Below, piece by piece: positions 442 to 61,170 of a stretch of DNA of 64,000 nucleotides. Position 1 is the stretch's first letter. Every line of letters begins with the position of its first letter. This DNA is from Mustelus asterias (Eukaryota): positions 98,580,001 through 98,644,000 of the forward strand of contig NC_135812.1 in NCBI RefSeq assembly GCF_964213995.1, written 5' to 3'. Under the pieces are notes generated by a model that was given only the letters and a program-made list of their open reading frames with translations, was not told the origin of the DNA and made no database searches. A program made the translations under genes and the position numbers.

Positions 442-797
442 GGTAGTCATGATGTGGAGATGCCAGAGTTGGACTGGGGTAAACACAGTAAGAAGTTTAA
501 CAACACCAGGTTAAAGTCCAACAGGTTTATTTGGTTGCAAAAGCCACAAGCTTTCGGAGCCTTAAGCTCCTTCTTCAGGTGAGTGGGAATTCTGTTCACA
601 AACAGGGCATATAAAGACACAAACTCAATTTCATTCCAACCATTATTCATGTTAATTGAGTTTGTGTCTTTATATGCCCTGTTTGTGAACAGAATTCCCA
701 CTCACCTGAAGAAGGAGCTTAAGGCTCCGAAAGCTTGTGGCTTTTGCTACCAAATAAACCTGTTGGACTTTAACCTGGTGTTGTTAGTCTTCTTACT
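442..797. mobile_element. Penelope-like element (PLE) fold-back insertion (inverted pLTR pair)
   Basis: Arms ~488-632 and ~650-797 are reverse complements; left arm carries the extra tail; TSD-like TTTATCTGTA at 427-436 and 797-806. Confidence 0.85.
703..739 (+). ncRNA. Minimal type I hammerhead ribozyme motif in PLE pLTR
   Basis: CAC-CTGAAGA-A-GGAGC(TTAAG)GCTCC-GAAA-GCT-T-GTG; stem I CAC/GTG. Confidence 0.75.
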
Positions 798-1755
798 TTA
801 TCTGTACCCTCAGCTCATCAGCTTTATTTACTATAATAAAATCAAAATACTGCATGCTGGAAATATGAAAGAAAAACAGAAAATGCTGGGAAATTTCAGC
901 AGGTCTGGCAGCATCTGCAGAGTGAGAAACAGAGCTGACTATGTATTTACTACGCTCCTTACATTTACACACATACCTTTTAACACTGTCAGATTCCTGT
1001 GCTGTACACTGTTTTACCTGTGCTGCCTCTGACTCTCAGAGCCACTCACTAATTCTCCATTTTCTGTTCCCTGCTCTGAACTTTCCTGTTGAGTGCAGTC
1101 ATCCTGTTTGCCTTGACTGTTAACGTCTTTACTTACCAACTCTTTTCAAACTCATGAATTTATTAAATGGGGAAAAAAAAGCTTGAAGCGGCTTAGTCCC
1201 AGGTGGCACTTGGCACCTTCTCTGACGTGATGTCTTGTTTTCACTGACATTCAGCGTACTGTGGGGTCAGAGTATGACCTTTCAGACCTGACATCTGGGC
1301 CCGAATATACATCCAACAAACAGGAGAAAGTAGGTTTCCAGTTCCTTGTCGTGGTAATGGTAATTGAGAAACATGAGCTGAAAACCGGCTAAACCGCACC
1401 TCCCGCTCCCCCTCCCCTTCACACTGCAGCATTACCACAATAGGGAATCCTGTAGAATTGAGCTGAATAAGAAGTCTCACAACACCAGGTTAAAGTCCAA
1501 CAGGTTTATTTGGTAGCAAATACCATAAGCTTTCGGAGCACTGCTCCTTCGTCAGATGGAGTGGATATCTGCTCTCAAACAGTGCAAACAGACACAAAAA
1601 TCAAATTACAGAATACTAATTAGAATGCAAATCTCTACAGCCAGCCAGGTCTTAAAGGTACAGACAATGTGGGTGGAGGGAGCATTCAACACAGGTTAAA
1701 GAGATGTGTATTGTCTCCAGACAGAACAGCCAGTTTAATAAATTCATAACACAGG

Positions 1756-1908
1756 CATTCAGCCTTGGATCTTCAGGTAAGCGTTCTCCAAGGCGGCCTT
1801 CACGACACACGACAGCGCAGAGTCACTGAGCAGAAACTGATAGCCAAGTTCCGCACACATGAGGACGGCCTAAACCGGGATGTTGGATTTATGTCACATT
1901 ATCAGTAA
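1756..1908 (+). pseudogene. C-terminal fragment of a PLE GIY-YIG endonuclease
   Basis: Translates HSALDLQVSVLQGGLHDTRQRRVTEQKLIAKFRTHEDGLNRDVGFMSHYQ*, with the R..EQ..I..F.T...GLN pattern of PLE GIY-YIG domains. Confidence 0.85.
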
Positions 1909-2116
1909 CCCCCACAGCTTTCCCCCTGATCTTGCAGAATCTCACTAGCTGTTCTGTCTGGAGACAATACACATCTCTTTAACCTGTGTTGAATGCTCCC
2001 TCCACCCACATTGTCTGTACCTTTAAGACCTGGCTGGCTGTAGAGATTTGCATTCTAATCAGTATTCTGTAACTTGATTTCTGTGTCTGTGCACTGTTTG
2101 AGAGCAGATATCCACT

Positions 2117-2153
2117 CCATCTGACGAAGGAGCAGTGCTCCGAAAGCTTATGG
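2117..2153 (+). ncRNA. Minimal type I hammerhead ribozyme motif (mirror copy on - at 1523-1559)
   Basis: CCAT-CTGACGA-A-GGAGC(AGT)GCTCC-GAAA-GCT-T-ATGG; stem I CCAT/ATGG. Confidence 0.8.
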
Positions 2154-2459
2154 TATTTGCTACCAAATAAACCTGTTGGACTTTAACCCGGTGTTGTGAG
2201 ACTTCTTACTGTGCTTACCCCAGTCCAACACCGGCATCTCCACATCAATTGAGCAGAAGACAGGGGCGCAATGTCAATCCTGCCAGTGGCAGCTATAATT
2301 TCCATGTTTCATTATGTCTCCCTCACTCTGCAGCCTGCCTACCGACTGCAGGACCTGGCACTCAGGGGCAATATCAATGTGAAAGTGGCAGCTCAATACC
2401 TCAGTGAGGCACCGTTGACTTGGAATTTGAACCCAACTTTCCCTGAGGACGATCTTTCT

Positions 2460-2857
2460 GTTTGATTTGATTTGATTTATTATTGTCACATGCATTAGTA
2501 TACAGTGAAAAGTATTGTTTCTTGCGCGCTATACAGACAAAGCATACCATTCATAGAGAAGGAAAGGAGAGAGTGCAGAATGTAGCGTTACAGTCATAGC
2601 TAGGGTGTAGAGAAAGATCAACTTAATGCAAGGTCGGTCCATTCAAAAGTCTGATGGCAACAGCGAAGAAGCTGTTCTTGAGTTGGCTGGTACGTGATCT
2701 CAGACTTCCGTATTTTTTTCCAGATGGAAGAAGGGGGAAGAGAGAATGTCCGCGGTGCGTGGGATCCTTAATTATGCTGTCTGCTTTGCCGAGGCAGCGG
2801 GAAGTGTAGACAGAGTCAATGCATGAGAGGCTGGTTTGCGTGATAGGCTGGGCTTCC
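2460..2857 (-). mobile_element. LINE 3' fragment with (TCAAA)n tail (Rex1/Babar-like); second copy at ~14845-14980
   Basis: TTTGA repeats at the left end followed by sequence repeated at 14845-14980; family assignment by resemblance only. Confidence 0.55.
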
Positions 2858-2895
2858 CTGAGCTTCGGAACTGACTGTGCTTGTGGAATGTGCAG

Positions 2896-3088
2896 GGTCT
2901 AGGAGCTCCAATCGGGTCTCTTATTGGCGGCCGAAAGGAATTTATCGAGCAGGCCCTCCGAGTGCGGAAAGTGCTTGGAGGGGGCATGAGGCAGGCTGGG
3001 GTGTTGGCAGCCGCAGGACTCATCTCCTTATCAGATATGGTCGAAAGGCTCCGAGATGACCACAGAAACGCCAGGAAGTTTGCTGAAG
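2896..3088 (+). CDS. THA1: L-threonine aldolase (low-specificity, PLP-dependent), penultimate coding exon
   Basis: [41 protein letters not shown] is the hallmark segment after the PLP lysine; acceptor tgcag at 2891-2895, donor gtacca at 3089 (phase 1). Confidence 0.95.
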
Positions 3089-3174
3089 GTACCAACTGTT
3101 TATAAATGTTTCACTGTTCACCTCCTTACCTCAAAATGAACCATCGCAGTTCTGTCCCATTTTCAATTGATTCA

Positions 3175-4256
3175 AAGAACAAAAGGTCCAGCACAGGAAC
3201 AGGCCCTTCAGCCCTCCAAGCCCATGCCGATCATGATGCCCTAACTAAAAAGAAAATTTTTGCCCTTACTTTGTCCGTACCCCTCGATTCCCTTCCTGTT
3301 CGTGTCCCATCCAGGTGCCTCATAAATGTTGTTAATGTGCCTGCTTTCATCACATCCTCTGGCAGTGCGTTCCAGGCACCCACCACTCTCTGTGTGAAAA
3401 ACTTCCCCCACACATCTCCCTTAAACTTTCCCCCTCTCCCCTTGAACCTGTGCCCCCTTGTAATTGACACTTCCACCCTTGGAAAAAGCCTCTGACTCTC
3501 CACCCTGTCTGTGCCTCTCATAATTTTGTAGACCTCTATCAGGTCTCCCCTCAACCTCTGACTTTCCAGTGAAAACAATCCTAGTTTATTCAACCTCTTC
3601 TCAGATCCAACACCCTCAAGACCGGATAACATCCTGCTGAACCTTCTTTGCACTCACTCCAAAGCTTCCACGTCTTTCTGATAATGTGGTGACCAGAACT
3701 ACATGCAATACTCCAAATGCGGCCTAACCAAGGTTTTATATAGCTGCAGCATGATTTCCCAACTCCTGTACTCAGTGCCCTGGCTGATGAAAGCAAGCGT
3801 GCCAAATGCCTTCTTAACCACCTTGGCCACCTGTGTTGCCACTTTTAGGGAACTGTGGACCTGCATGCCCAGATCCCTCTGTATGTTAATGTTCCTTAGG
3901 GTTCTGCCATTTAATTCATACTTAAATTTAATCTTTCAAAATGCATCACCTTGCATTTGTCCAGATTAAACTCCATCTGCCATTTCTGTGCCCAAGTCTC
4001 CAATCTATCAATATTCTGTTGGATCCTCTGACAATATCCGGCAGTATCAGCAACTCCGCCAATCTTCATGTCATCTGCAAACTTACTAATCAGACCACCA
4101 CATTTTCCTCCGGATCATTTATATATACCATAAACAAGAGAGGTCCCAGCACTGATCCCTGCAGAACACCACTAGCTACGGATCTCCATTCTGCAAAACA
4201 CCCTTCCATCGCTACCCACTGTCTTCTATAACCAAGCCAGTTCTGTATCCATCTGG
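3175..4256 (-). mobile_element. CR1/HER1 LINE 3' fragment(s)
   Basis: Minus ORFs with [40 protein letters not shown] motifs. Confidence 0.92.
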
Positions 4257-5267
4257 TCAACAGTGTTTATTTCCTTTATAAAGCAAGAAAATCCACACCG
4301 GTGAAGTGGCGCAAGGTGATAACTTGCTGATGGACAATTTGTTTCCTGTGCCCTGTCATTAGTTGTGTTGGAATATTCGGCCTGCAGTTGGTGCAGCGTG
4401 ATCCATGGGGTGGTCCACATGTTGACCAGACTGTATGCTGCTCTGTGTAACACAGCAAGCCAGCCTCAAAGCCCTCGCAGCTAAAATGGAGGCCCAAGGC
4501 ATTAAATGCTGACTTGAGATTACAAATGAGAGTCTGGTGCACCGAATTGAGGCCTCGGACGTACCCACAAGAGTGAGCCTACTTCAGACTGAGCCAGTCT
4601 GGGTCAGAGTCACTCCATCTGGCAGACCTCGGGGTGCTTATATTTGGAACAGCGTGTGGATCACATTCTGGCGTGGCTCAGATTGTGCTTACCTACAGGA
4701 AACTAATAAATGGAATAAATCTTTGTTCTGAATATTCAGCCCAAACAGGGCGGATTCTGTTTTTGGATCAGAAACTTGTCTCCGGCTTGCGAATGATTTT
4801 TCAGAGTCCTTTGTGCACACAGGTTTCCTGTCCACTTTGAGGCAGTGGTGACAGGAACAGAAATGGGTCAGATGAAGCATGGGACTGACTTAAACCCTTC
4901 CACCCCCCCCCCCCCCCCCCCCCCGCCCCCCCTGCCAACAGCACTGAGGCTGCTGGTTATCCTTGGGGAGAAGTCTGCAGATTTTACCAAGGCACTCTGC
5001 AGCACCAGAGGAACATTCAATGTTAACAGGAGGAACCGGGAGTCTGGCCCCCCTATTAGGGCATCGATGGACATCTGCATCTAATGTTGTAGTGAGTGGA
5101 GGGATGGTGCTGGGAGGAGCTCTCTGTGTTGTGTTAAATGAGTCATTGGGGTGTTGTTTTCCTGTTCCTGCCCAACTGGTTTCCTCTATTTGCATTCTAT
5201 AGATGATGATAGACATCGGGGGCTCCTTTCGTTTCCACCATAACAGGAAATGGGGTTTGACCAAAGA

Positions 5268-5428
5268 TGTGCGGGTTATGTTAATTGGCCATGCGATATT
5301 TCCCCTTGGTGTCAGGGGGACTAGATATGTGGGGTTACGGGAATAGGGCCTGGGTGGGATTATTGTCGGTGCAGGCTCGATGGGCTGAATGACCTCCTTC
5401 TGCACTGGAGGGATTCTATAATTCTATG
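5268..5428 (+). mobile_element. HE1 SINE 3' part
   Basis: HE1 body and tail ending ATTCTAT-type repeats. Confidence 0.75.
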
Positions 5429-5604
5429 ACCTTGACCGTAACCTGTATCATCCAAGGAACAAGGACAGCAGATGCACAGGAACACCCACCACCTGCAGGT
5501 TCCCCACCAAGCCACACCCCGTGACTTGGAGCTATATCACCATTCCTTCACTGTCCCTGGAACTCCCTTCTAAACCTCACTGCGGATATACCTACACCAC
5601 ATGG

Positions 5605-6040
5605 AAGTGGTGGGTTGTCACCTGAGGAAAGGCTGGAGAGACAAGGCTCGATCTTCTGGAGTTTAGAAGTGTAAGAGGCGACTCGATTGAAACATACAAG
5701 ATCCTGAGGGGACTTGACGGAGTGAATGTGGAGAGAATATTTCCTCAGGTGGAAGAATCTAGAACCTGGGGTCACTGTTTAAAAATGAAGGCTTGCCCAT
5801 TTAAGACAGAGATAAGGAGGACTTTTTCCTCTGGGGGTTGAGAGTCTTTGGAACTCTCTTCCTCAAAAGGTGGTGGAAGCAGAATCTTGGAATATTTTTA
5901 AGATAGATTCTTGATAAGGAGGTGAAACGTTACCGGGAGTAAGCAGGAATGTGAAGTTACAGTTAAAATCAGATCAACTGTGATCTTATTGAATGGTGGA
6001 AGAGGCTCGAGGGGCCAAGTGGCCTACTTTTGCCCTGAAT
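5605..6040 (+). mobile_element. CR1 LINE 3' fragment
   Basis: Degenerate RGDLIETYKIL / RTRGH / WNSLP sequence and CR1 3' UTR. Confidence 0.85.
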
Positions 6041-6060
6041 CTCTCTGAATCTGCTCTGAA

Positions 6061-6352
6061 GGGCGGCACAGTGGTTAGCGCTGCTGCCCCACAGCGCCAG
6101 GGACCCCTATTCGATTCCCAGCTTGGGTCACTGTGTGGGGTCTGCACGTTCTCCCCGAGCCTGTGTGGGTTTCCTCCGGGTGCTCCAATTTCCTCCCACA
6201 ATCGGAAAGATGTACTGGTTAGGTGCATTGGCCATGCTAAATTCTCCCTCAGTGTACCCAAACAGGTGCCAGAGTTTAGCGACTAGGGGATTTTCACAGT
6301 AACTTCATTGCAGTGTTAATGTAAGCCTATTTGTTACACTAATAAATATACT
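6061..6352 (+). mobile_element. tRNA-headed V-SINE (HE1 head/core) with alternative 3' tail
   Basis: Pol III A/B-box head and V-SINE core, then ...GTAACTTCATTGCAGTGTTAATGTAAGCC...AATAAA tail. Confidence 0.85.
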
Positions 6353-6469
6353 TAAGTAAGTATATTTTTATGTATTTATGTTCTCAGGGCCAATTAGGGA
6401 CGGGCAATAAATGCTGACCTAATCAACGAACATCCTGTGAAAGAAAAGGAAAAAATGTGAGATTGCGGT

Positions 6470-7105: not shown

Positions 7106-7107
7106 AC

Positions 7108-17280: not shown

Positions 17281-17663
17281 TTCTTCACACTTGGTTCAGA
17301 GCAATATTTGCGAATCCTGAAACTCGGTTCTCTGCCTGCCTCCATCTTGATCATTCACATATTACTCCGGATGAATTAAGGTGATAATTCACACACACAA
17401 TACAGAAACCAGATCAACCTGAGCAGAGGTGTCACTATCCAGCTGCTACCGCTTTGTTTTGATGATCTGGTTCCTCATTCTAAACTTTATTCATTGGTTT
17501 TAACAATGAGAGAAAGAATGCACCCATTAACCCCAAAGCGGTGGGATGACGTGAATGTCGAAGTTAATCAGTGAGATGTCTCAATAATTTTACTGCTAAT
17601 AATATTTCCTAATTGTGCATTTGGATGTTTATGTCTATAATCAGAGCTGGTTGGATTCATTCA

Positions 17664-17835
17664 CAGTAAGAAGTCTCACAACACCAGGTTAAAGTCCAAC
17701 AGGTTTATTTGGTAGCAAATACCATATGGTATTACATATGGTATTTGCTACCAAATAAACCTGTTGGACTTTAACCTGGTGTTGTGAGACTTCTTACTGT
17801 GCTTACCCCAGTCCAACGCCGGCATCTCCACATCA
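17664..17835. mobile_element. Short PLE fold-back insertion lacking the ribozyme core
   Basis: Inverted arms; TSD TGGATTCATTCA at 17652-17663 and 17836-17847. Confidence 0.85.
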
Positions 17836-18449
17836 TGGATTCATTCAGACAGTTTATGTCCCAGAACGGACATTATGCACGTTTGTCTTGTGCTCTGGAA
17901 CTCAATCAGTGATTGAGTATCACTGGGCTCTTCACCCTTCACACCTCGGTTTCTGTTATGTCTGTGTCTGAAAGACGTGCTGGTTAGGTGCATTGGCCAC
18001 GCTAAATTCTCCCTCAGTCAGTGTACCCGAGCAAGCGCCAGAGTGTGGCAACTAGGGGGTTTTCACAGTAACTTCATTGCAGTGTTAATGTAAGCCTACT
18101 TGTGACACGAATAAATAAACTTTAAACTTCAAGTGGTTCATCTTCTGCAGCAAACTGTTGGTGTTTTGGGGCTGCTGCTGCTCTCTCTCTTCAGTAAGAT
18201 GATGAAAACGTGGATATGAGAAAAGACACGGCAGTGGAAAATATTAGTGGACAATTCATCATTGCTTCTCCGAGAATCTCACCTGACCCAAAGTGATTTC
18301 ACAAATATTTTTTGAGAGTTTGCGAAAAGACCTTTTGCAGTATCACAACGCTCTGAGACAATTGAAAAGGGTACATAGCACTTAACTTCAGGTCAAGCTT
18401 TCCAGGTATCTGATTCTCCAACAGGGGGCAGCAATGAGATGCACAGTAG

Positions 18450-24825: not shown

Positions 24826-25405
24826 GCCAGTGCATGTGTTCCAATGTATCTGCTATCCTTTGCGCTCGAGGAGCCCATGGGTTTGGAATGTGCAGGTGAA
24901 GGAGGTTTGTTGCTAACTACCTGCCTTGACCCTTAGCAGAAGATTCCAGTCACCTACAACATTAAGAATGCCTGGATGGAGGCGGCCAATGAAGTAAATG
25001 TAATCTCAAGTGTTTGAGCAGTCACAAGGGCAGATTGCCACCAGGCTGTTGATTGCCCCTTCTTTGTAAAACGTTTTCCCCCATTGACACGGGACCCCCA
25101 CTCTGGGAGAAGGGGGCTTGTGCAGAGGAGCTTCCCCAAACTCCCGGGGCTGGGACAGGGTGGGTTTTCCCCGGGATGCCCAGGATGACTCTGATGCAGT
25201 TGGCAGTCCTATTCTGCTCCCTTGGTGACCTCTTGCAGCTGAGGAACTTGGGAGCAGCAAATATTTGCGGAGTCCATTGTCCCACTCATTGCTCATCAGC
25301 GTCAGGCTAATGGAGACCAGCACAAGTTCCAGCTATGTCACTGCTATTTTTTTTAGTTCTGTTGGGAGTTTTCTTTAGAAAAATGTTTTGATGCTGTTGT
25401 GGCAG

Positions 25406-25482
25406 CTCCGAAAGCTTGTGTGGCTTTTGCTACCAAATAAACCTATTGGACTTTAACCTGGTGTTGTTAAACTTCTTACTGT
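25406..25482 (+). mobile_element. PLE pLTR fragment
   Basis: CTCCGAAAGCTTGTG...CCAAATAAACC...CTTCTTACTGTG. Confidence 0.75.
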
Positions 25483-25906
25483 GGCAGTTAAAGGCATGGT
25501 CTTCCTGGAAGAAATGTGACGTGTTCACATTTTTCTTTGAACTGTCGAAAGGGGCCAGAAAGCAGGAGAAGCACATGGAGCCATGAATTATCTCCCAGGC
25601 CCTGGGTGGGAGGGATTTCACAAGAGGTTGCATGCGATACATATTCAGTGCTTCCTTAGACCCTGATTGTTTACACTGATTCTGCCCATGTGACACCAAG
25701 CTTACTCCAATGAGATTCACAGGAGATTGGAGTGGAACTTAGCGCTGGTAGGAATGGGAAGATTGCTTGCTCTGACTTTAGTGTTGCCTCTATGGAGGAG
25801 ATTCCAGGACAGTTGTGTGAAGGTGCCCAGATTGAAATCTAGTTCTCTCACGATACAACACATCATTCTGCGTATCCAGCTTCATTTCCCATAATTCCTG
25901 GAATAT

Positions 25907-34489: not shown

Positions 34490-35019
34490 GTAAGAGTTTT
34501 AACAACACCAGGTTAAAGTCCAACAGGTTTATTTGGTAGCAAATACCATTAGCTTTCGGAGCGCTGCTCCTTCGTCAGATGGAGTGGAAATCTGCTCTCA
34601 AACAGGGCACGGAGACACAAAATCAAGTTACAGAATACTGATTAGAATGCGAATCCCTACAGCCAACCAGATCTTAAAGATACAGACAACGTGAGTGGAG
34701 GGAGCATTAAGCATAGGCTAAAGAGATGTGTATTGTCTCCAGACAGGACAGCCAGCAAGTCCAGGAGGCAAGCTGTGGGGGTTACTGATAATGTGACATA
34801 AATCCAACATCCCGGTTTAGGCCGTCCTCAAGTGTGCGGAATTTGATTTTGTGTCTCCGTGCCCTGTTTGAGAGCAGATTTCCACTCCATCTGACGAAGG
34901 AGCAGCGCTCCGAAAGCTAATGGTATTTGCTACCAAATAAACCTGCTGGACTTTAACCTGGTGTTGTTAAAACTCTTACTGTGTTCATCCCAGTCCAACG
35001 CCGGCATCTCCACATAATT
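34490..35019. mobile_element. PLE fold-back insertion with GIY-YIG 3' end on the minus arm and hammerhead motifs on both arms (+ copy 34887-34923)
   Basis: Inverted arms; ~34783-34842 matches the reverse complement of the GIY-YIG end at ~1849-1908; TSD AGCACCTTA at 34481-34489 and 35020-35028. Confidence 0.88.
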
Positions 35020-36124: not shown

Positions 36125-37336
36125 GTGGCAACACAGGTGGCCATGATAATTAAGAAAGCCGATGGCATGGTTGCCCTCATCAGCCGGGGCATTGAGTACA
36201 AGAGATGGGAAATTATATTGCAGCTATATACAACCTTGGTTAGGCCGCATTTGGAGTATTGCGTGCAGTTTTGGTCACCACACTATCAGAAGAATGTGGA
36301 AGCTTTGGAGAGAGTGCAAAGAAGCTTCACCAGGATGTTGTCTGGCCTCAAGGGTGTTGGCCAAGAGCAGAGTCATAGAGTCATAGAGGTTTACAGCATG
36401 GAAACAGGTCCTTCGGCCCAACTTGTCCATGCTGCCCTTTTTTTTAAACCCCTAAGCTAATCCCAATTGCCCACATTTGACCCATATCCCTCTTTACCCA
36501 TCTTACCCATGTAACTGTCTAAATGCTTTTTAAAAAACAAAATTGTATCTGCCTCTACTACTACCTCTGGCAGCTTGTTCCAAACACTCACCACCCTTTG
36601 TGTGAAAAAGTTCCCCCTCTGGACACTTTTGTATCTCTCCCCTCTCACCTTAAACCTATGCCCTCTAGTTTTAGACTCCCCTACCTTTGGGAAAAGATAT
36701 TGACTATTTAGTTGATCTGTGCCCCTCATTATTTTATAGACCTCTATAAGACCACCCCTCAGCCTTCTACGCTCCAGGGAAAAAAGTCCCAGTCTATCCA
36801 GCCTCTCCTTATAACTCAAACCATCAAATCCCGGTAGCATTCCAGTAAATCTTTTCTGCATTCTTTCTAGTTTAATAATATCCTTTCTATAACAGGGTGA
36901 CCAGAAGAGAGGTTGAATAAATTAGGATTGTTTTCACTGGAAAGACGGAGGCTGAGGGGAGACCTGATAGAGGTCTACAAGATTATGAGAGGTATAGACA
37001 GGGTGGCTAGTCAGAGGCTTTTCCAAGGGTGGAAGTGTCAATTACAAGGGGGCACAGGTTCAAGGTGAGAGGGGGAAAATTTAAGGGAGATGTACAGGGG
37101 AAACTTTTCATGCAGAGAGTGGTGGGTGCCTAAAACGCGCTGCCAGAGGAGATGGTGGAAGCAGGCACATTTGCAACATTTAAGAGGCACTTGGATGGTC
37201 CATGAATAGAGAGGAATAGAGGGATATAGACCGAGTAAGGACAGAAGGTTTTTTTTGTTTAGTTTAGTTAGGGCAGCATGATCGGCACAGGCTTGAAGGG
37301 CCAAAGGGCCTGTTCCTGTGCTTTTCTATGTTCTTT
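36125..37336 (+). mobile_element. CR1 LINE 3' fragment interrupted by an antisense CR1
   Basis: LYTTLVRPHLEYCVQFWSP motif; continues at ~36905 with [11 protein letters not shown]. Confidence 0.9.
36371..36904 (-). mobile_element. Nested CR1 3' fragment (same subfamily as 16745-17280)
   Basis: ORF 36457-36861 QKRFTGMLPG...WNKLPEVVVEA. Confidence 0.92.
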
Positions 37337-38427: not shown

Positions 38428-38639
38428 GTGGAGATGCCGGTGTTGGACTGGGGTGGGCACAGTAAGAAGTCTCGCAACACCAGGTTAAAGTCCAACAGGT
38501 TTATTTGGTAGCACAAGCTTTCGGAGCATTGCTCCTTCAAACAGCCCACTCACCTGATGAAGGAGCAGTGCTCTGAAAGCTCGCGCTACCAAATAAATCT
38601 GTTGGACTTTAACCTGATGTTGTGAGACTTCTTACTGTG
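38428..38639. mobile_element. PLE fold-back insertion
   Basis: TSD CTCATCATTCT at 38417-38427 and 38640-38650; hammerhead core at 38554-38582. Confidence 0.87.
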
Positions 38640-39350: not shown

Positions 39351-39597
39351 TGATGTGGAGATACCGGTGTTGGACTGGGGTAAACACAGTAAGAAGTCTC
39401 ACAACACCAGGTTAAAGTCCAACAGATTTATTTGGTAGCACAAGCCACAAGCTTTTGGAGCGCTGCCCCTTCATCAGGTGAGTGGGCGGGAAGTTAACCC
39501 GCTCACTTGATGAAGGAGCAGCGCTCCAAAAGCTTGTGGCTTGTGCTACCAAATAAACCTGTTGGACTTTAACCTGGTGTTGTGAGACTTCGTACTG
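39351..39597. mobile_element. PLE fold-back insertion
   Basis: TSD TGTTTA(T/C)ATTCTA at 39338-39350 and 39598-39610. Confidence 0.87.
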
Positions 39598-40573: not shown

Positions 40574-40744
40574 TGATGTGGAGATGCCAGCGTTGGACTG
40601 GGGTAAGCACAGTAAGAAGTCTCACAACACCAGGTTAAAGTCCAATAGGACTTCATCACCTGATGAAGGAGCAGCACTCCGAAAGCTTGTCATTCCAAAT
40701 ATACCTGTTAGATTTTAACCTGGTGTTGCAAGACTTCTTACTGT
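40574..40744. mobile_element. PLE fold-back insertion
   Basis: TSD ATCAATTATTAA at 40562-40573 and 40745-40756. Confidence 0.85.
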
Positions 40745-42552: not shown

Positions 42553-42719
42553 TGGAGATGCCGGCGTTGGACTGAAGTGGGCACAGTAAGAAGTCTCACA
42601 ACACCAGGTTAAACCAGGTGGGTTGACTCACCTGATGAAGGAGCAGCGCTCCGAAAACTCGTGATACCAAATAAACCTGTTGGATTTCAACCAGGTGTTA
42701 TGAGACCTGTTACTGTTTT
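42553..42719. mobile_element. PLE fold-back insertion
   Basis: TSD ATAATACATGATA at 42540-42552 and 42720-42732; hammerhead core with stem I TCAC/GTGA. Confidence 0.82.
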
Positions 42720-43357: not shown

Positions 43358-44370
43358 TATTTATTCATTCATGGGACATGGGTATTGCTGGCTGGCCTGC
43401 ATTTATTGCTCATCCCTAATTGCCCTTGTTCAGAGGGCAGTTGCGAATCAACCACATTGCTGTGGCCCTGGAGTCACATGTAGACCAGACCAGGTAAGGA
43501 AGGCAGATTTCCTTCCCTAAAGGACATTAGTGAACCAAATGGGTTTTTTCGACAATCGGCAATGGTTTCATAGAACATAGAACAGTACAGCACAGAACAG
43601 ACCCTTCGGCCCACGATGTTGTGCCGAGCTTTATCTGAAACCAAGATCAAGCTATCCCACTCCCTATCATCCTGGTGTGCTCCATGTGCCTATCCAATAA
43701 CCGCTTAAATGTTCCTAAAATGTCTGACTCCACTATCACTGCAGGCAGTCCATTCCACACCCCAACCACTCTCTGCGTAATGAACCTACCTCTGATATCC
43801 TTCCTATATCTCCCACCACGAACCCTATAGTTATGCCCCCTTGTAATAGCTCCATCCACCCGAGGAAATAGTCTTTGAACGTTCACTCTATCTAACCCCT
43901 TCATCATTTTATAAACCTCTATTAAGTCTCCCCTCAGCCTCCTCCGCTCAAGAGAGAACAGCCCTAGCTCCCTCAACCTTTCCTCATAAGACCTACCCTC
44001 CAAACCAGGTAGCATCCTGGTAAATCTCCTCTGCACTCTTTCCAGCACTTCCACATCCTTCTTATAGTGAGGTGACCAGAACTGCACACAATATTCCAAA
44101 TGTGGTCTCACCAAGGTCCTGTACAGTTGCAGCATAACGGCTCTTAAACTCCAACCCCCTGTTAATAAAAGCTAACACACTATAGGCCTTCTTCACAGCT
44201 CTATCCACTTGAGTGGCAACCTTCATGGTCATCAGTAGATTCTTAATTCCGGATATTTTTTATTGAATTCAAATTACACCATCTGCGGGATTCAAACCCA
44301 GGTCCCCAGAACATAAGCTGAGTTTCTGGATGAATAGTCTAGCGATAATACCACTAGGCCATCGCCTCCC
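43358..44370 (-). mobile_element. SacSINE1-like SINE split by a CR1 insertion (43570-44223)
   Basis: SINE halves at 43358-43570 and 44224-44370; CR1 ORF 43647-44135 LYRTLVRPHLEYCVQFWSP...WNGLP is open. Confidence 0.88.
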
Positions 44371-45350: not shown

Positions 45351-45659
45351 ATTTTAAAAAACAAAAGGGGGAGGATATGACTAAATGGATTACTTCCAGG
45401 AAATGAGTGGTACAAATACAAATCTCTGCAACATAAATACACTGTAGTATTTTGGGCAGACCACAAGCAATCCCTTAAATATCTCATCATTTCTCTTACC
45501 CTGATTATGGAACTATCCATTTCCTAGTAGGACTTTATCCTGTCTAAAAATGTGCCTTGGGTTTTTGTTCCATCACATCTGCTGGCAATCTGCTGCACAA
45601 TTTCAATTCCATCATTCACGATGAAGATACTCAGACAAACACAGGAACTGCTGGCATTT

Positions 45660-45960
45660 ACAGAAAAAAATACCAGGACTCACACAGAATATACTATAAC
45701 TCACGCAGAAAATACTGGGACTCACACAGAAAATACAGGGACTCACACAGAATATACTATAACTCACGCAGAAAATACTGGGACTCACACAGAATATACT
45801 ATAACTCACGCAGAAAATACAGGGACTCACACAGAATATACTATAACTCATGCAGAAAATACAGGGACTCACACAGAATATACTATAACTCACACAGAAA
45901 ATACAGGGACTCACACAGAAAATACCGGGACTCGCACAGAATATACTATAACTTACACAG
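45660..45960. repeat. 21-bp-period minisatellite overlapping the TMEM235 donor site
   Basis: ACTCAC-type motif every 21 nt from 45678 to 45951 (14 units of two interspersed types). Confidence 0.95.
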
Positions 45961-46037
45961 TAAGTGACGCTGTGTTTCAGGTACGTTCTGACTCTCTTCC
46001 CCAAAGGGGTCTATTAAAGCAATGCAAGCATTTTTAC
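45957..46037 (-). CDS. TMEM235: TMEM235 internal exon (81 bp)
   Basis: ttatttccag|GT AAA AAT GCT TGC... = (G)KNACIALIDPFGEESQNVPETQRHLL T|gtaagt; resembles the C-I-x-L-x-D-P-F segment of TMEM235. Confidence 0.9.
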
Positions 46038-46532
46038 CTGGAAATAAAATAAAAATGAAACATCATATTTTATACATCTGACCCTAAATATTCTTTAAAT
46101 ATCGGTAGTAAAGAGTAGTGAATTTCAAACAACCTTCATATCGGTTTAATGTACATTAATAATTTCATGCTCCATTTTAACTTTTATATTTCAGATTTAT
46201 AATGTTTAAGCTATAAAATTAGGGGACTGATAATAAAAGGCCGGGGGGTGGGAATCGTGTGATTTACAGACATCCTGATTTAACACAGCTAAATCACAAG
46301 ATGCAGTGTCACAGTGCTGCAATTCTGCAACAAGCGGCTCACCTCCAGACTCCACAAAGTCTCTAAAATGTCTACAAGGCACGAGTCAGGATGGAATATT
46401 CTTCACTTGCCTGGTAGTGTGCAATGGCAACAACACTGTCCAGGACAAAGCAGTCTGCTTGATGAATATCCCATCAAGCTCCGTAAACTCTGTTATGAAT
46501 ATGAGGTTTTATATGATGGTTAAGTTTTCATA

Positions 46533-47090
46533 ATGTGGAGATACCGGTGTTGGATTGGGGGGGGCACAGTAGGAAGTCTCACAACACCAGGTTAAAGTCC
46601 CAACAGGTTTATTTGGAGGAGACAGTGGCGTAGTGGTATTGTCACTGGACTACTAGTCAAAGACTCAGGGTAATGTTTTGGGGACCCGGGTTCGAATCCC
46701 ACCATGGCAGCTGGCAAAATTTGAATTCAATAAAAAAATCTGGAATTAAAAGTCTAACGATGACCATGAAAGCATTGTTAATTGCTTTGGGTGGCACGGT
46801 GGCATGGTGGTTAGCACTGCTGCCTCACAGCGCCAGGGACCCGGGTTCGATTCCCGGCTTGGGTCACTGTCTGTGTGGAGTTTGCTCCCTGTGTCTGCGT
46901 GGGTTTCCTCCGGGTGCTCCGGTTTCCTCCCACAGTCCAAAGATGTGGGGTTAGGTTGATTGGCCATGTTAACGGGAGGTTACGGGAATAGGGCCTGGTT
47001 GGTGCAGACTCAATAGGCCAAATGGCCTCCTTCTGCTCTGTAGGGATTCTATGAGATTTGGAATCACAAGCTTTTGGAGCACTGCTCCGG
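46533..47090. mobile_element. PLE pLTR fragment (-) interrupted by a SacSINE1-like head (46618-46785) and an HE1 SINE (46789-47052)
   Basis: pLTR sequence stops at ATTTGG (~46615) and resumes at ~47056. Confidence 0.7.
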
Positions 47091-48398: not shown

Positions 48399-48487
48399 TG
48401 ATGTGGAGATGTCGGCGTTGGACTGGCTGGGCACAGTAAGAAGTCTGATAACACCAGGTTTAACCTGGTGTTGTGAGACTTCTTACT
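48399..48487. mobile_element. Very short PLE fold-back insertion
   Basis: Palindromic centre ACACCAGGTTTAACCTGGTGT; TSD-like ATGATCTA at 48387-48394 and 48488-48495. Confidence 0.75.
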
Positions 48488-48996
48488 ATGATCTAGTCTT
48501 ATGACAGAACTGGCTCAAGGAATTGAGCAGTGCACTCCTGTTCCTATGGACTGCGTCAATGGATAGAAATCCAATCTCAAGGACAGACAGATCTTAAGGT
48601 TGTGAATATTTTAATGTTCTCTTCATTCTTCTGGCTATTTTATTCTCTCAGTCACCCTCAGCTAACTGTCTTCATCTGGCATCCAAGCCCATATACTTAA
48701 AGCAGGTTTAATGGATGCTGTTCACAAAGGGGATCCTGGTCAATTCTTTGTGCAACTGCTGAGACAAATCGGAATCTCTGTACTGCCTTCAGCCAAGACA
48801 AGGTCAGCTAATTGATCAGTCTGAACTCAGATCAAACTGGAATCCTTCTGAAATAACTCCTGAGAGGCCGGTGTCCCTTCATTTATTTACAACTCAACTC
48901 AATTCCACTCCCAAGAGTGTTTCAAGTATAAAGTCAGAATCCAGAGTGTCAGTAGCCTCAATATGTACACACAGGATTGGGCAGGCAATCATTACC

Positions 48997-50514: not shown

Positions 50515-51830
50515 AGCCTTCCAGGATCACACCTTCCAGGATCACACCTTCCAGGATCATAACTTCCAGGATCACACCTTCCAGGATCACACCTTCCAGG
50601 ATCACACCTTCCAGGATCATAACTTCCAGGATCACACCTTCCAGGATCATACCTTTCCAGGATCTCGCCTTCCAGGATCTCGCCTTCCAGGATCACACCT
50701 TCCAGGATCATAACTTCCAGGATCATACCTTTCCGGGATCTCGCCTTCCAGGATCATAACTTCCAGGATCATACCTTTCCAGGATCACGCCTTCCAGGAT
50801 CATAACTTCCAGGATCACACCTTCCAGGATCATACCTTTCCAGGATCTCGCCTTCCAGGATCTCGCCTTCCAGGATCACACCTTCCAGGATCATAACTTC
50901 CAGGATCATACCTTTCCGGGATCTCGCCTTCCAGGATCTCGCCTTCCCGGGTTTTGCCTTCTCGGGTTTCACCTTCCGGGATCACGCCTTCCAGGATCAT
51001 TCCAGGGGCGGCACGGTAGCACAGTGGTTAGCACTGCTGCTTCACAGCGCCAGGGACCTGGGTTCGATTCCCGGCTCGGGTCACTGTCTGTGTGGAGTTT
51101 GCACATTCTCCTCGTGTCTGCGTGGGTTTCCTCCGGGTGCTCCGGTTTCCTCCCACAGTCCAAAGATGTGCTGGTTAGGTTGATTGGCCATGCTAAAATT
51201 GCCCCTTAGTGTCCTGAGATGCGTAGATTAGAGGGACTAGCGGGTAAATATGTAGGGATAAGGGGATAGGGCCTGGGTGGGATTGTGGTCGGTGCAGACT
51301 CGAAGGGCCAGATGGCCTCTTTCTGCACTGTAGGGTTTCTATGATTCTATGATCACGTCTTCCCGGGATGACACCTTCTGGGGTTTCGCCTTCCCGGGTT
51401 TCACCTTCAGGGATTACAACTTCCTGGGTTTCGCCTTCCAGCGTTTCGCCTTCCAGGGTTTAGCTTTCCAGGATTACACCTTCTGGGATCTCACCGTCCA
51501 GGATCTCGCCTTCCAGGATCTCGCCTTCCAGGATCATGCCTTCCAAGATCTCACCTTCCAGGATCTCACCTTCCAGTGTTTAGCCTTCCAGGATCTCGCC
51601 TTCCAGTGTTTAGCCTTCCAGGATCACGCCTTCCAGGATCACGTCTTCCAAGTTCTCGTCTTCCAGGATCTCGCCTTCCAAGATCACGCTTTGCGGGTTT
51701 CACCTTCCAAGGTTTAGCTTTCCAGGATTACACCTTCTGGGATCTCACCGTCCAGGATCTCGCCTTCCAGGATCTCACCTTGCGGGTTTCGCCTTCCGGG
51801 GTTTCGCCTTCCAGGATTACGCCTTCTAGG
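50515..51830. repeat. 15-bp minisatellite (CCTTCCAGGATCACA variants) interrupted by an HE1 SINE
   Basis: Direct periodicity of 15 nt. Confidence 0.95.
51006..51351 (+). mobile_element. HE1 SINE (young, full length)
   Basis: GGGCGGCACGGTAGCACAGTGG...TTCTATGATTCTATG. Confidence 0.95.
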
Positions 51831-52296
51831 ACATACAAGTCCTAACCAGAAGAGTTTTCACACAAATCCCAACCAGGATAACATTTGTCATGAAAGTACC
51901 AACCGGGAGAATAGCTCCACACACCTTCGCTCCCAGCAAGAGTCTATTAACAGCGTGCAGAAGCAAGAAATCTAGCTGATCAAGGGCACTGATACCAATT
52001 AGCCTGAACCTTCCCAGCTAATTCACCACTAACTGGAAATCAGGAGCCTCACTGGTGTATACAAGTCAGCTGGATAAACATGGTGAGGTATGAGTACAGT
52101 AAGGCTGCATCTGGTTTCAGTGGTATTGAGAGAGGGATCTGGTCTCCAGAGGGTCACTGCTGGACTTTAACCGGTGATAGCCCACAGACAGTGAGTGCAA
52201 AGCGCTGCCAGCGCAGTACTGGATTAGAAAAGTCTGCCATAGACTATCGATTCGATTCCTAACTTCTGTCACCAGATCTGTTTTTCTGGAAGCACA

Positions 52297-52525
52297 GTAA
52301 GAAGTTTAACAACACCAGGTTAAAGTCCAACAGGTTTATTTGGTAGCAAAAGGCACACAAGCTTTTGGAGCTCCAAGCCCCTTCTTCAGGTGTGAAGAAG
52401 GGGCTTGGAGCTCCGAAAGCTTGTGTGGCTTTTGCTACCAAATAAACCTGTTGGACTTTAACCTGGTGTTGTTAAACTTCTTACTGTGTTTACCCCAGTC
52501 CAATGCCGGCATCTCTACATTATTC
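52297..52525. mobile_element. PLE fold-back insertion
   Basis: Inverted arms; TSD CTGGAAGCACA at 52286-52296 and 52526-52536. Confidence 0.87.
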
Positions 52526-55485: not shown

Positions 55486-57364
55486 TCTAAAAACTAACAA
55501 TGAATCCTTGTCCTTCATCATGAAGAGCTGTGTTTAGCTGAGCAATTTTTGACTAATAGCTAACTGAATAGGTACGGGAGTACTTTATTACTGGACTACA
55601 TTTTAAGGCAAACATGTATATTATTTTGCTGATGTTACGCTGTAATGTTGCTTGATACGGTCATCATCGTGCACATGATCATGTACAAATTTAATATGTA
55701 TTCTCACAGAACATGGTACCGCATGCTAACCTGCGAATGTGATTTGCAAACTGAAAGGTTGAATGCTTTTGGCTTCAGAACATTTGAGGTTTAGTACATT
55801 GTAATAAACACAATTAGTATGCTGGTGTTAAAAAAGAAATCGCCCAAAAAAGCATCAAAAAATTCTTTCGATGTCAATCAATTTTCCAAGGAACAGCCAG
55901 AGATTTAAATGAGGGATTACAATGTCGTTCGCTGGAATGTTACCGCCCCGCCCACCATGGGATTCGGAGCGAGCGAGGGGCAGACCTTGGAGTGGTCTGT
56001 TGACCTTGGATGGAATTTAACGGTTTTGGGACGAGCGAGGCCATAAAATCCCACATTTTTGTGCATGTCCTGGTATATCACATTTTGTTAATTTCTTCAT
56101 GCCACGAATCTGAAATTGCTTTGTTTCTTTTGATCAGAAATGGGGTATTTTGACATTCACAAATAAAAATGCTATTTACCTGCTGATCGGATGGGTGATT
56201 TGAAGTTGTGTATTTGCACAGACACAATTGCGATGTAGCATCTGTCTATGATATAACTGCAAGGTAACACTAAAATAATCTGTTTATCTTGACTTCAAAG
56301 AGGAATTGAAGGGTTAAACATAGGAGCTTGCTTTTGTTCAGTAGTTCCGGCCAATTGTGTCGTTTGAATAAATGGAAGGCATGTGTGTGTGGCTCCTTAC
56401 CTGGGCGATCCTGTTCATTTTGCCATAATACCGAGGGCAGCACAAGAAAATGTAATGATTGAATGAATCAATTTTGCTAGTAATCAAGATGTTATTGTTT
56501 TCAAATGGAGAGGATGATTGCATTTATTTAGAAAGGAGTGCTAACTAATGGTAATTGGATAATTGACCCAGTACAGACTTTCCTCGATATTTGTATTATT
56601 GTATTAATGTTCACCTAACTTCATGTTTCTATTTGACTATAAATAAATGTATTAGTTGTTTAGCCCTTGAAATCTGATCTGAATGTAATTTCAGGTATTC
56701 CTAAGGGAGTGGGATATTGCAGCATTTAACATTTAATTCAGTCTATAGATCACTCTAAGCTAAGTAAAGATAAATGTTAACCCATCAGCTCAAAGCACTG
56801 AGCAAGGGCATATTACATAAAAGTAACGCTTTTGAGACCATGGGGACAATGAGCAATTGTTGGAGCTATTGCAGAACCATTCAGAGAAAAAATAGTTCTG
56901 TGAAAACCTAAAATTGTAACACTTCAGAAATTAATCTGACCTATGGAGCTTTTTTGCAGCCTGTTCGACTTCATTCTCTCAATGTCTTAATTACAAATCC
57001 CATTCAAGCAAAGAGATTTTGAAATTACAAAATGTACCCTAATTCTTTTCAATACCAGTTATTGATCAGAGCTAAAATGGGTGAAAGTCATTTTATCTCT
57101 TTGAATCTTGTACATTTTGTCCCGGTGAAAATTGGTATTAACTGTGTGCATTTTGTCCGTGGTTAGTCGGTCACTTTTAGTAAGGGACTAATCCCACTTT
57201 TCCACATTCAGTTATTTGAGGAACAGGAACGAATGAAGTAGAAGAGAGCTAGGCCCCTCAAGCCTGCTCCACCATTCAATAAGATCATGGCTGATCATGG
57301 TTGAGGTAGTGGCGTCGTGGTATTACCATTGACTAGTAATCTGGAGACCCAGAGCAACAGTAGA

Positions 57365-58107
57365 ATCATAGAATCCCGACAGTTCAGAAGGAAGCTATTC
57401 AGCCCATCGAGCCTGCACCAACAACAATCCCATTCAAGATCTTATATATTTCAATCATGTCACCCCTCACTCTTCTAAATGCCAGTGGAAACAAGCCCAG
57501 TCTGTTCAACCTTTCCTCACAAGACAACCCACTCATTCCAGGTATCAATCTAGTAAACCTCCTCTGAACCACCTCCAATGTATTTACATCCTTCCTTAAA
57601 TATGGAGACCAAAACTGCACACAGTATTCAAGATGTGACCTTGTGTTACTGAAGAATAACATCCATACTTTTATGTTCAATTGCTCTCATTATCATAGAA
57701 TACCTAAATGCTGAAGAAGGCCATTCGACCCATCAAGACTGCACCAACCACAATCCCACCCAGACCTTATCCCCGTAATCCTATGTATTTACCCTGATAA
57801 TCCCCCTGACACTAAGAGGCAATTTAGCATGGCCAATCAACCTAACCTGCACATCTTTGAAGTGTGGGAGGAAACCTAGAGGAAACACGGGATAGCATCC
57901 TATTAAGCTTCTTGAATACTGGCTGTACCTGCATACCAATCTTTTATGACTTCTGCACTAGAACATTTGAAATTCTCCCTTGGGAATAATATTGGGCAAG
58001 AGTGAGGGGTGACATGATTGAAATATATAAGATCTTGAATGGGATTGTTGTTGGTGCAGGCTCGATGGGCTGAATAGCTTCCTTCTGAACTGTCGGGATT
58101 CTATGAT
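57365..58107. repeat. Perfect 110-bp inverted repeat (57365-57474 / 57998-58107)
   Basis: Arms are exact reverse complements by inspection; spacer holds CR1 and HE1 fragments. Confidence 0.9.
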
Positions 58108-59384
58108 CATGTAAAAGTCTGTTGAGCTCAGGCGGGAATTTCTGGTTTTGGAGCGCGCGCAGCCAGAGAATCCGGTCCCTAGATCCCACTGGACCTCGGG
58201 GCTTTGCAACCACAAATGTAACAACTCTGTTGCAATCCCAGACAAGCCCTGTTATTATCCTGGACCAGACCCCGACCCGCAACTTTTTGTTAAGACCCTG
58301 TTAGGAACCAATAATACTTTTTTTAAAAGTAGACAACATCTGAGATTCAAGACACTTGCGTGGTGAATAAAGCCACAAGATTCCACGGGTTTCAAACAAA
58401 TAGAATTAAACTTTACTCGACGAGGTCAGAAAGATGAAACAATCTATAATATCTATCTTGTACACTCACATTTAGGGTTGATATGAGGTACGTGTGAATT
58501 AACGGACAAATTGGTACATCACAGAGTCCACAGATTTTTCAGTAACCCATTCAGATGTCAGTAAACATTGTGAGTCAACTAATCTCATTGAATCTCTGTC
58601 TCCCTCATGAAGGATTCTCGTCTTCACCTTCAAAGATCTCACCTTAGAATTCTCTCCAAAAGTCGCTCTAACTCGGAAGGCCTCAAACAGCTGACAATAG
58701 CTGACCTCACAATGTTTCAATCTCATCTCCCAACACTTCAAAACCCTAGATTGTCGAATCTGCACTCAAATACTAACTCACAAACACAACTTCAGCTTTT
58801 TGGCCATGACTGCTCCATAGGGATACCTTCATCTCCCATTTGGAGTAACTAACTTTCTATAATCCCCAGGGATTCACCTGAGCCCTCGTCAATTTCCAAA
58901 GCCTCTGCTGAGCGCTCTTTGATTGCCAGGGTTTTTCCTGAACCCTTTGCCTTTTAAACGTCTGCCAACCATAGCCCTTTTCCTGTGTGGAGCCTCTTTT
59001 TTCACTCCATTTCCTTCTTGACTGGGACCTCCCCCTGTCCCCTCACCCCTTGGGACCTATGCCTGACCCCTCTCCTTGTCCGCTGCTTGGGACTCATTGG
59101 GGAGTCTCTCTGGGTCCCTTCTTCCCATTCCCTGCTCAGAACTCTTCTTTACTATGGTGGCCCACTCCTGGGTCAGGTGACCAGATCTTTGTGCCATTTC
59201 TTTTTGCACAGGTGTAATGGGCCCATCCTTGTCTCAAAAAATTATAAAACTGCCACATTGTACATGCACAAAACTCCCAAAGTCTGCCAGGATTTGGAGT
59301 TCCCAGCCTTTGTTCTGGAAGAGGTAGGTTTGAATTTCTTGGCAGTGCCTGGTTTTGTAACAATCCTGTTGGGGTCCATTAACA

Positions 59385-59710
59385 GGGCAGCACGGTAGCA
59401 CAGCGGTTAGCACTGCTGCTTCACAGCTCCAGGAACCTGGGTTCGATTCCTGGCTCGGGTCACTGTCTCTCCCCGTGTCTGCATGGGTTTCCTCCGGGTG
59501 CTCCGGTTTCCTCCCACAGTCCAAAGATGTGCGGGTTAGGTTGATTGGCCATGCTAAGTTGACCCTTAGTGTCCTGAGATGTTTGGGTTAGGGGGATTAG
59601 CGGGTAAAATATGTAGGGATTAGGGGTAGGGCCTGGGTGGGATGGTGGTCGGTGCAGATTTGATGGGCCAAATGGCCTCTTCCTGCACTGTAGGGTTTTA
59701 TGATTCTATG
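59385..59710 (+). mobile_element. HE1 SINE
   Basis: Head, core and tail. Confidence 0.9.
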
Positions 59711-59807
59711 AACGTTTAAAGAAGAAAACCAAACAACCAGAAATTAACCGACAGAATTATGCTGCAAGAGACTAGCTTTCAACTCCAGCTTCTTGTTATT
59801 AATTGAA

Positions 59808-60128
59808 ATCATAGAAGGAGACCATTCGGCCCATCGAGTCTGCACCGACAACAATCCCACCCAGACCCTATCCCCGTAACTCCACATATTTACCCTGCTA
59901 ATACCTCTAATCTACGCATCCTGGGACACTAAGGGGTGATTCAGCATGGCCAATGCACCTAACCCGCACATCTTTGGACCGTAGGAGAAAACCGGAGCAT
60001 CTGAAGAAAACCTACGCAGACACGGGGAGAACGTACAAACTCCACACAGACAGTGACCCAAGCCGGGAATCGAACCCAGATCCCTGGAGCTGTGAAGCAG
60101 CAGTGCTAACCACGGTGCCACCATGCCA
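59808..60128 (-). mobile_element. HE1 SINE (tail-to-tail with the previous copy)
   Basis: Full length on minus strand. Confidence 0.9.
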
Positions 60129-60181
60129 CTCTGGGACCTCTCCCTCAACCTTTGGGACCTCTGTCTGTCCCCTCTCCCTGT

Positions 60182-60519
60182 AAGAAGTTTAACAACACCA
60201 GGTTAAAGTCCAACAGGTTTATTTGGTAGCAAAAGCCACACAAGCTTTCGGAGCTCTAAGCCCCTTCTTCAGGTGAGTGGGAATTCTGTTCACAAACAGA
60301 GCTTATAAAGACACAGACTCAATTCATGTAAATTGAGTCTGTGTCTTTATAAGCTCTGTTTGTGAACAGAATTCCCACTCACCTGAAGAAGGGGCTTAGA
60401 GCTCCGAAAGCTTGTGTGGCTTTTGCTACCAAATAAACCTGTTGGACTTTAACCTGGTGTTGTTAAACTTCTTACTGTGTTTACCCCAGTCCAACGCCAG
60501 CATCTCCACATCATGACTA
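60182..60519. mobile_element. Young PLE fold-back insertion with hammerhead motifs on both strands
   Basis: ~140-bp essentially perfect inverted arms; TSD CCCTCTCCCTGT at 60170-60181 and 60520-60531. Confidence 0.9.
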
Positions 60520-61170
60520 CCCTCTCCCTGTCCCAAGTTAAATTCCACCAGCTGCTGTGGTGGGAGTTGAACCTGCGCCCCTAGAGTATTTTCCTGGGCT
60601 CTGGATTACGGGTCCAGTAACATTTTTTTAAAAAGCAGAGAAGGTAACTGCTCAGAAACCACTGGTTCTGTAAATTTCAGGTCAGATTTCTTTGTCCCCT
60701 GAATATTTCTTAGGTTTTTTAACCTTATCTCAGTCTTCCACTTAGCTGGGGCACAACACTGTATGGACAAGAGGATTTTAAGCAAAGCATATTTGGCCTG
60801 GGATTGGAAATTAAAAATGCACCCGGTCAGGCTTTGCTCTTCCAAGCACACTGAAAGAAAAATAAATGCAAATCTGTGCAAATGGATGGAACGTGTTGTT
60901 TGCTATTTTTCGCCATACTTACGAAGGGGTGAGTGATATTGAGTGCAATTTGCTTTGTCTTGAGTTTATGTTCACTTCCTATCTGTGAAATAAATCAGCT
61001 TGGCCATTCATGCCTAACTTGTCTCACAAAGTATTAGTTTGTTCTTGAAAAAATTGCAAAGATGCACATCAAGACATGTGCAGAAAGTCCACTTCTGATC
61101 ATGTGGTAGTCACACTCCAGTATTAGATATCAGGCGGTACAAGCACACTTTGAATACAAGAGCAACACGC

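Follow-up and report, generated by a model that had tools for sequence, protein, structure and literature searches.

The 64,000-nucleotide stretch of the Mustelus asterias genome analysed here (NCBI RefSeq assembly GCF_964213995.1, contig NC_135812.1, positions 98,580,001 to 98,644,000, referred to as the window) includes 13 insertions that belong to a single Penelope-like element (PLE) family, an independent count that agrees with the figure of about 13 given by a previous reading of the letters (the sequence-only reading). The pseudo-long terminal repeats (pLTRs) of this family carry minimal hammerhead ribozyme motifs. It is probable that these motifs are PLE minimal hammerheads and that an excess of copies starting at the predicted cut is the trace left by a minority of RNA templates that cleaved themselves in the germ line. 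It also appears fairly likely that thousands of insertions were reverse-transcribed from RNA already cut by its own minimal hammerhead, in which case they would constitute a heritable record of cleavage in vivo. Both the motif and the host element are of known kinds: the motif is a metazoan PLE minimal hammerhead and not a retrozyme.

All the motifs listed by the sequence-only reading were found at their positions, and nine of the 14 cores in the window (Table 1) pass all rules. In two of the listed motifs (C3 at 38554 and 40660) stem I is broken, and a third (42632) has lost the stem III palindrome. A loose pattern gave 14 matches in the window against a shuffle mean of 5.2, with none of 100 shuffles as high, and a structure-based descriptor, which requires stems I and II, gave nine hits in the window and none in each of 20 shuffles. 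The Rfam hammerhead families gave no match in the window at gathering score. The motifs include the core CUGANGA, GAAA and UH in type I order, and the evidence supports their assignment as minimal type I hammerheads that a PLE carries in its pLTR, in the sense orientation of the open reading frame (ORF), with catalysis predicted.

The pairing of the stems was evaluated in an alignment of 23 natural copies, which are related in sequence and were chosen by hand to span the subfamilies. Of the 207 stem cells 99% are paired, as compared to 24-50% in slid controls, and two-sided changes are found at four of the nine stem pairs. The covariation between subfamilies described in the sequence-only reading is frequent in stem I, which holds most of the two-sided changes (T-A versus C-G at the core-proximal pair), but the changes in stem II are mainly one-sided G-U wobbles, the two-sided cells being three in 23 sequences. 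The clearest two-sided change in stem II, a swap of G-C to A-U, was observed in a divergent subfamily with the stem GGAACA/TGTTCC (L176:3088-3142(-), L152:2593-2647(+), L358 and L403). N7 and loop II vary freely. Among 262 arms (the copies, mostly joined in pairs, that make up the insertions) the extra base between 9 and 10.1 is A in 260, G10.1 is present in 260 and C11.1 in 232 (the other 30 have T, by CpG decay), and the palindromic 15.2-16.2 pair without helix III is represented by G15.2 in 253 and C16.2 in 257. The base at the cleavage site, said to be never G, is not G in any of the 14 window cores but is G in three of the 262 arms. The minimal hammerheads described by Cervera and De la Pena in 2014 (PMC4209133; this and the other published sources were available to us in part, and what is said of them refers to those parts) are alike in being type I, in lacking helix III, in the palindromic 15.2-16.2, in the extra base 9/10.1 and in G10.1-C11.1, as well as in forming several covarying families of mostly single truncated copies with some close opposite-strand pairs. 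They differ in helix II, which is 5-6 bp here and 7-8 bp in the Schistosoma families.

The same motif could be kept as a pLTR promoter or protein-binding sequence that only resembles a hammerhead. Invariant columns between 18 groups amount to 19 of 59 in the upstream untranslated region (UTR) and 40 of 47 in the segment downstream of the hammerhead, so that the excess conservation anticipated for the core was found relative to the upstream UTR but not relative to the downstream pLTR segment. The core is no more invariant than this segment and thus does not stand out by its conservation; it is moreover required by the search patterns, so that its conservation is not independent, and the subfamilies are so closely related that the invariance of the 13 core bases is weak evidence by itself. 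On the other hand, variation occurs at N7, loop II, H17 and compensated stem positions, all four hallmarks of the published motif are present, and a PLE hammerhead has been shown to cleave with core-mutant controls (PMC11167929), all of which makes a mere resemblance highly improbable. The segment of about 40 nt located just 3' of the hammerhead (2162-2200 in the window) is nearly invariant across the subfamilies and may be a promoter or a binding site for a protein. When two copies of 2113-2156 were cofolded, the form of lowest energy was not the double hammerhead, a result that was set aside as nearest-neighbour folding omits the core.

The host element was identified through the frame at 1756-1908, which exactly matches the end of a protein listed under Mustelus asterias and shows 79-90% identity to the other 13 hits, most of the named ones being from sharks. 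The sequence-only reading had seen there a GIY-YIG C-terminus and hence a PLE. The homologues and the full ORF agree with the family, but the 50-amino acid fragment lacks the GIY-YIG motif and Pfam found nothing when it was searched alone. The homologues carry RVT_1 and GIY-YIG, the latter over the cut-off on P0004 and just under it on P0001. Among 11 loci chosen for their length, two (L061 and L062) contain an intact 892-amino acid ORF that is flanked at either side by a hammerhead in the same orientation, the two hammerheads being 3,021 bp apart. The encoded protein (P0015) includes RVT_1 (35.6 bits, cut-off 29.6), a DKG motif and, before the endonuclease, the CX4CxxC linker CHSNLCKTC; no GIY-YIG hit was reported on P0015 itself. 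The linker fits Neptune or Nematis and not Poseidon, which is described without it. The C-terminal endonuclease-bearing (EN+) PLEs of the Neptune and Nematis type likewise have a reverse transcriptase, a CX2-5CxxC linker and a GIY-YIG endonuclease (Craig et al., 10.1101/2021.04.23.441226). The unit of about 3.02 kb consists of the hammerhead, about 65 nt, the short end, a tail of about 37 nt, the ATG, the 892-amino acid ORF, a UTR of about 210 nt and the next hammerhead. The predicted cut lies about 100 nt 5' of the ATG, which directly follows the tail, whereas the ORF of PAc, the Poseidon element described from Anolis carolinensis by Frangieh et al. in 2024 (PMC11167929), has its start within the hammerhead. 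PAc is otherwise alike in having a pLTR hammerhead and two 3' ends split by the tail, and in that both strands are extended and insertion occurs without the need of cleavage.

Two arrangements near the hammerhead were observed in addition. In L032, L043, L046 and L065 the start of the ORF is rejoined to the pLTR or to the ORF end, which results in short direct repeats; their two hammerheads lie on one strand at a distance of a few hundred to 1,100 bp and could dimerise in cis. A tract rich in pyrimidines, with a final CAG about 13 nt before C3 (for example 2085-2108 in the window), resembles a splice acceptor, and in D. virilis the Penelope intron ends at helix I (PMC4209133). No splice joint at this putative acceptor was seen in contigs; the four of 22 sequencing runs consulted, as contigs only, gave no RNA ends and no usable splice joints and were not used as evidence.

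Most insertions consist of two head-to-head arms, one ending at the short end and the other at the tail, inside a target duplication that peaks at 12-13 bp. A long-tail arm is combined with a short arm in 77 of 89 inverted pairs, and the two arms share one subfamily in 64 of the 66 pairs that could be typed. This is the described PLE pattern and fits the biochemistry of the anole element (PMC11167929). The Penelopes of Adineta (PMC3846280) and the EN+ PLEs also show partial tandems, an inverted 5'-truncated copy, a one-sided tail of 30-40 bp and target duplications, those of Adineta differing in their length of 8-10 bp. A single RNA would serve as the template of both arms, copying would begin 65-100 nt 3' of the cut and the hammerhead would be copied first. 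The hammerheads of mirror arms are antisense to each other, and one transcript would not be able to pair them as a dimer. A transcript through a fold-back insertion would include one sense copy inside a long hairpin, and mirror arms probably do not act as dimer partners, a role for which the candidate is the pair of hammerheads on one strand in full-length elements arranged in tandem. Dimerisation of two different RNAs in one particle finds little support, as arms of different subfamilies are combined in only 2 of 66 and 3 of 74 of the pairs typed. In rare insertions such as L004 (arms 1531- and 2124+) and L229 the arms come from different subfamilies, and either two RNAs are sometimes used per insertion or these are neighbouring insertions.

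Many of the units are 170-350 bp long, lack an ORF and have cores, and animal retrozymes derive from PLE pLTRs (10.64898/2026.07.22.740005), features that would suit a non-autonomous, retrozyme-like family copying itself through its own hammerheads. The animal non-LTR (long terminal repeat) retrozymes, which were found in one chondrichthyan, have type I hammerheads related to those of PLE pLTRs, but they are tandem direct repeats with up to 14,255 copies, and the structures described here represent the ends of an autonomous element, truncated and folded back. Neither the window nor the sampled copies, which are single or head-to-head arms, showed short non-coding units that are repeated directly in tandem and each bear a hammerhead. 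Moreover, junctions and lengths vary from copy to copy, the short units grade into ORF-bearing copies, and the tandem units seen contain the ORF. We give very little credence to such a family.

The number of hammerheads is large, as the sequence-only reading had supposed. Genome-wide searches gave 91,336 exact matches to one pattern and 98,970 to a pattern of core and stem II combined with three stem I pairs, and none to the reversed controls. In 754 kb of DNA picked by position, the window included, 25 of 47 hammerhead-bearing arms are intact and roughly half are decayed. Other hammerhead families were looked for in the same DNA and dismissed: 28 of 29 descriptor hits belong to this PLE family and the remaining one is at shuffle level (0-1 per shuffle).

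The evidence for cleavage comes from the places at which copies begin. The 5' ends were mapped in 255 of 266 arms picked by position or by a downstream anchor with the 5' end ignored, 11 arms cut off inside the anchor being dropped. Among the 255, 88 run past -68 and 78 end from 14 nt before to 2 nt after C3. Nine end at -1/0 of the cut, the same number as across the 17 neighbouring positions. Per nucleotide and per arm reaching the position, the rate of ends is 2.73% at the 5' edge of the hammerhead and 1.86% at the cut, compared to 0.57% within the motif and 0.65% upstream of it; of the two pile-ups, that at the cut is the sharper. The 5'-edge cluster, the largest, belongs mainly to TCAC-type subfamilies and lies 3-7 nt before C3 (42626 and 52392 are examples in the window); missing references for old subfamilies may inflate it. 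The sequence CCACTC found there resembles an initiator, and a transcript start is a reasonable explanation of the cluster. The base preceding ends at -6 is G in six of eight, a possible trace of a copied cap, some of these G residues coming from the partner arm.

A second set was enriched by a one-base filter for arms ending near the cut, which gave 6,990 and 5,539 genome matches, of which 147, from the first 45 Mb of one contig, were taken. Excluding nine intact copies, the ends at positions -8 to 0 number 2, 11, 2, 5, 5, 4, 6, 25 and 25, some ambiguous matches being allowed by the typing to count at -1, and those at +1 to +5 number 6, 4, 12, 19 and 12. There is no pile-up at the foot of stem II (the two ends at -8). 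With a stricter split, in which 10 were dropped, 27 of 56 copies of the ATGG and GTGG types end at -1/0 (null 19%, p 1e-6); without a recurrent palindromic join the figures are 19 of 48 (p 9e-4). Among joins to non-local sequence, counted with the first typing, 10 of 28 are at the cut (p 0.03). In the subfamily with H17=A the genome counts are 90 at -5/-4, 105 at -3/-2, 274 at -1/0 and 164 at +1/+2, or about 286, 327, 720 and 540 in the same order after correction by hand for filter efficiency and intact copies.

Tallies made by eye cover the first 100 matches in each case. An early tally of ends gave 27 at -2 to 0 compared to about 11 expected. Among the matches listed the base at -1 is A in 46, T in 11, C in 20 and G in 13 when H17 is A (10 intact dropped), and A in 26, T in 29, C in 39 and G in 4 when H17 is T (2 intact dropped). 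Since the base at -1 is templated in only about one fifth, near background, the peak is placed at 0, the base that immediately follows the cut, as cleavage predicts. Both arms end at the cut in 23 of about 63 short junctions (first 100 of 368 matches), 13 of them overlapping by AT, four blunt and six with one spacer base; four perfect joins at the 6-bp AAGCTT palindrome were found among the same junctions, the range of which is limited by the pattern.

Several points weigh against reading this footprint as cleavage. The GTGTGG class alone gives 11 of 47 (p 0.08), although it includes GTGG types, which are cut at what is +2 for this class. The ratio of the H17=A peak to the upstream pairs is 2.2-2.5 and to the downstream pair only 1.3; about half of the matches at +1/+2 are joins via a TGG(TA) homology shared with the partner arm and might just as well represent cut ends that were trimmed. 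Microhomology is not part of the null, the two arms of a pair are not independent, and the pattern filters interact with partner-derived sequence. The enriched sample represents 45 Mb of one contig and the hypothesis arose from these data, the case for cleavage in vivo being drawn solely from genomic copy ends. For the anole element no RNA-seq reads were found to end at the cut (PMC11167929), and dimers of minimal hammerheads cleave weakly in vitro (PMC4209133). Genuine PLE hammerheads could also show a peak at the cut by stalling of the reverse transcriptase at a folded or protein-bound core, or by microhomology end-joining. Recurrent homology-driven joins are common near the cut, the first two bases after it (AT) are self-complementary in one subfamily, and the +1/+2 count is high. 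We find this possible but rather unlikely, as the peak is also present in GTGG-type copies and in joins to non-local sequence, 10 of the approximately 63 listed junctions are blunt or one-base-spacer double joins without homology, the longer AAGCTT palindrome and the stronger GC-rich stem II draw fewer ends, and the base at -1 is mostly untemplated.

Cleavage of a minority of templates can be accommodated in the following scheme. By analogy with the anole element, for which two internal starts of reverse transcription with extension of both strands have been described (PMC11167929), the protein would nick both target strands and start reverse transcription at two internal sites 3' of the hammerhead. 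Every copy would pass the hammerhead region first, which would account for the huge number of cores. Copying would stop where the RNA ends: in many cases this is the 5' edge of the hammerhead, where transcription probably starts, and for about 2-3% of arms it is the cut. A dimer through the AGCT palindrome is probably needed for cleavage, helped by the protein of the element; the anole hammerhead needs its element's protein to cleave and is dispensable for insertion in vitro (PMC11167929). Cut RNAs would yield stubs starting at position 0 and most insertions would come from uncut or re-ligated RNA, so that the role of cleavage would be a side or regulatory one. The dispersed copies are probably, with few exceptions, passive by-products.

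Table 1. PLE insertions and hammerhead motifs in the window (positions as numbered in the window; C3 and H17 are the core positions)
Feature	Position	Strand	Remarks
Fold-back PLE insertion: long-tail arm -, short arm +	442..797	.	Target duplication 427-438 / 797-808
Minimal hammerhead, intact	544..582	-	C3 578, H17 548
Minimal hammerhead, intact	702..740	+	C3 706, H17 736
Fold-back PLE insertion that includes the 3' end of the ORF, the 3' UTR, hammerheads and tail	1468..2245	.	
Minimal hammerhead, intact	1523..1559	-	C3 1555, H17 1527
C-terminal 50 amino acids of PLE endonuclease domain and stop codon	1756..1908	+	By homologues
Minimal hammerhead, intact	2117..2153	+	C3 2121; predicted cut between 2149 and 2150
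Fold-back insertion lacking a hammerhead core; each of the two arms starts at predicted cut	17664..17836	.	Left arm reaches 17725-17726, right starts 17737-17738; target duplication 17653-17663 / 17837-17847 (read from sequence)
Single short arm, truncated inside stem II	25405..25483	+	
Fold-back insertion, two intact hammerheads	34490..35018	.	
Hammerhead, intact	34546-34582	-	C3 34578; in insertion 34490..35018
Hammerhead, intact	34887-34923	+	C3 34891; in insertion 34490..35018
Short fold-back insertion, one decayed hammerhead	38428..38638	.	
Hammerhead, decayed, broken stem I	38550-38586	+	C3 38554; in insertion 38428..38638
Short fold-back insertion, two decayed hammerheads (G12 lost)	39351..39597	.	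Decayed cores 39477 (-) and 39507 (+)
Short fold-back insertion, hammerhead with broken stem I	40576..40744	.	
Hammerhead, broken stem I	40656-40692	+	C3 40660; in insertion 40576..40744
Short fold-back insertion, hammerhead with mutated stem III palindrome	42553..42717	.	
Hammerhead passing rules; ACT for GCT, stem III palindrome lost	42628-42664	+	C3 42632; in insertion 42553..42717
Single long-tail arm, no hammerhead	46528..46616	-	
Minimal fold-back stump, no hammerhead	48399..48490	.	
Short fold-back insertion; arms end at hammerhead 5' edge	52297..52522	.	Decayed core (-) 52389; core lacking C3 (+)
Fold-back insertion, two intact hammerheads	60182..60517	.	
Hammerhead, intact	60238-60276	-	C3 60272; in insertion 60182..60517
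Hammerhead, intact	60379-60417	+	C3 60383; in insertion 60182..60517

The window also includes, at 36457-36921(-) and 43647-44171(-), frames that resemble C-termini of CR1/L2-type LINE reverse transcriptases, and minisatellite-like arrays at 45531-46052 and 51372-51845 (units of about 21 bp and 15 bp) that give open frames.

The literature searched yielded no report of a minimal hammerhead in sharks and no analysis of end footprints, and the word 'shark' is absent from the two of three supplement files of PMC4209133 that were searched; subscription papers, Dfam and Repbase entries and some supplements lay outside the search and may list such hammerheads or larger counts. The highest counts of minimal hammerheads given in PMC4209133 are about 4,000 in coelacanth and about 9,000 in Xenopus, and the approximately 99,000 cores found here are about ten times the highest of these. 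The function of the hammerhead in PLEs has been called unclear (10.1101/2021.04.23.441226), PMC4209133 gives no in vivo evidence for its cleavage, and the cutting of PLE hammerheads in cells is left open in both and in PMC11167929. Any assembly rich in PLEs can be tested for a genomic footprint of copy ends, and the intact tandem element is a ready system for biochemistry. If the reading of the footprint as cleavage is true, the size of the peak in each subfamily, given the approximately 99,000 intact cores and their many sequence variants, would show in nature how active the ribozyme is in the germ line, and it would follow from the palindromic joins cut at both sides that one cut RNA was the template of the two arms of an insertion. 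Release from read-through transcripts, circularisation and damping are candidate purposes of the cut.

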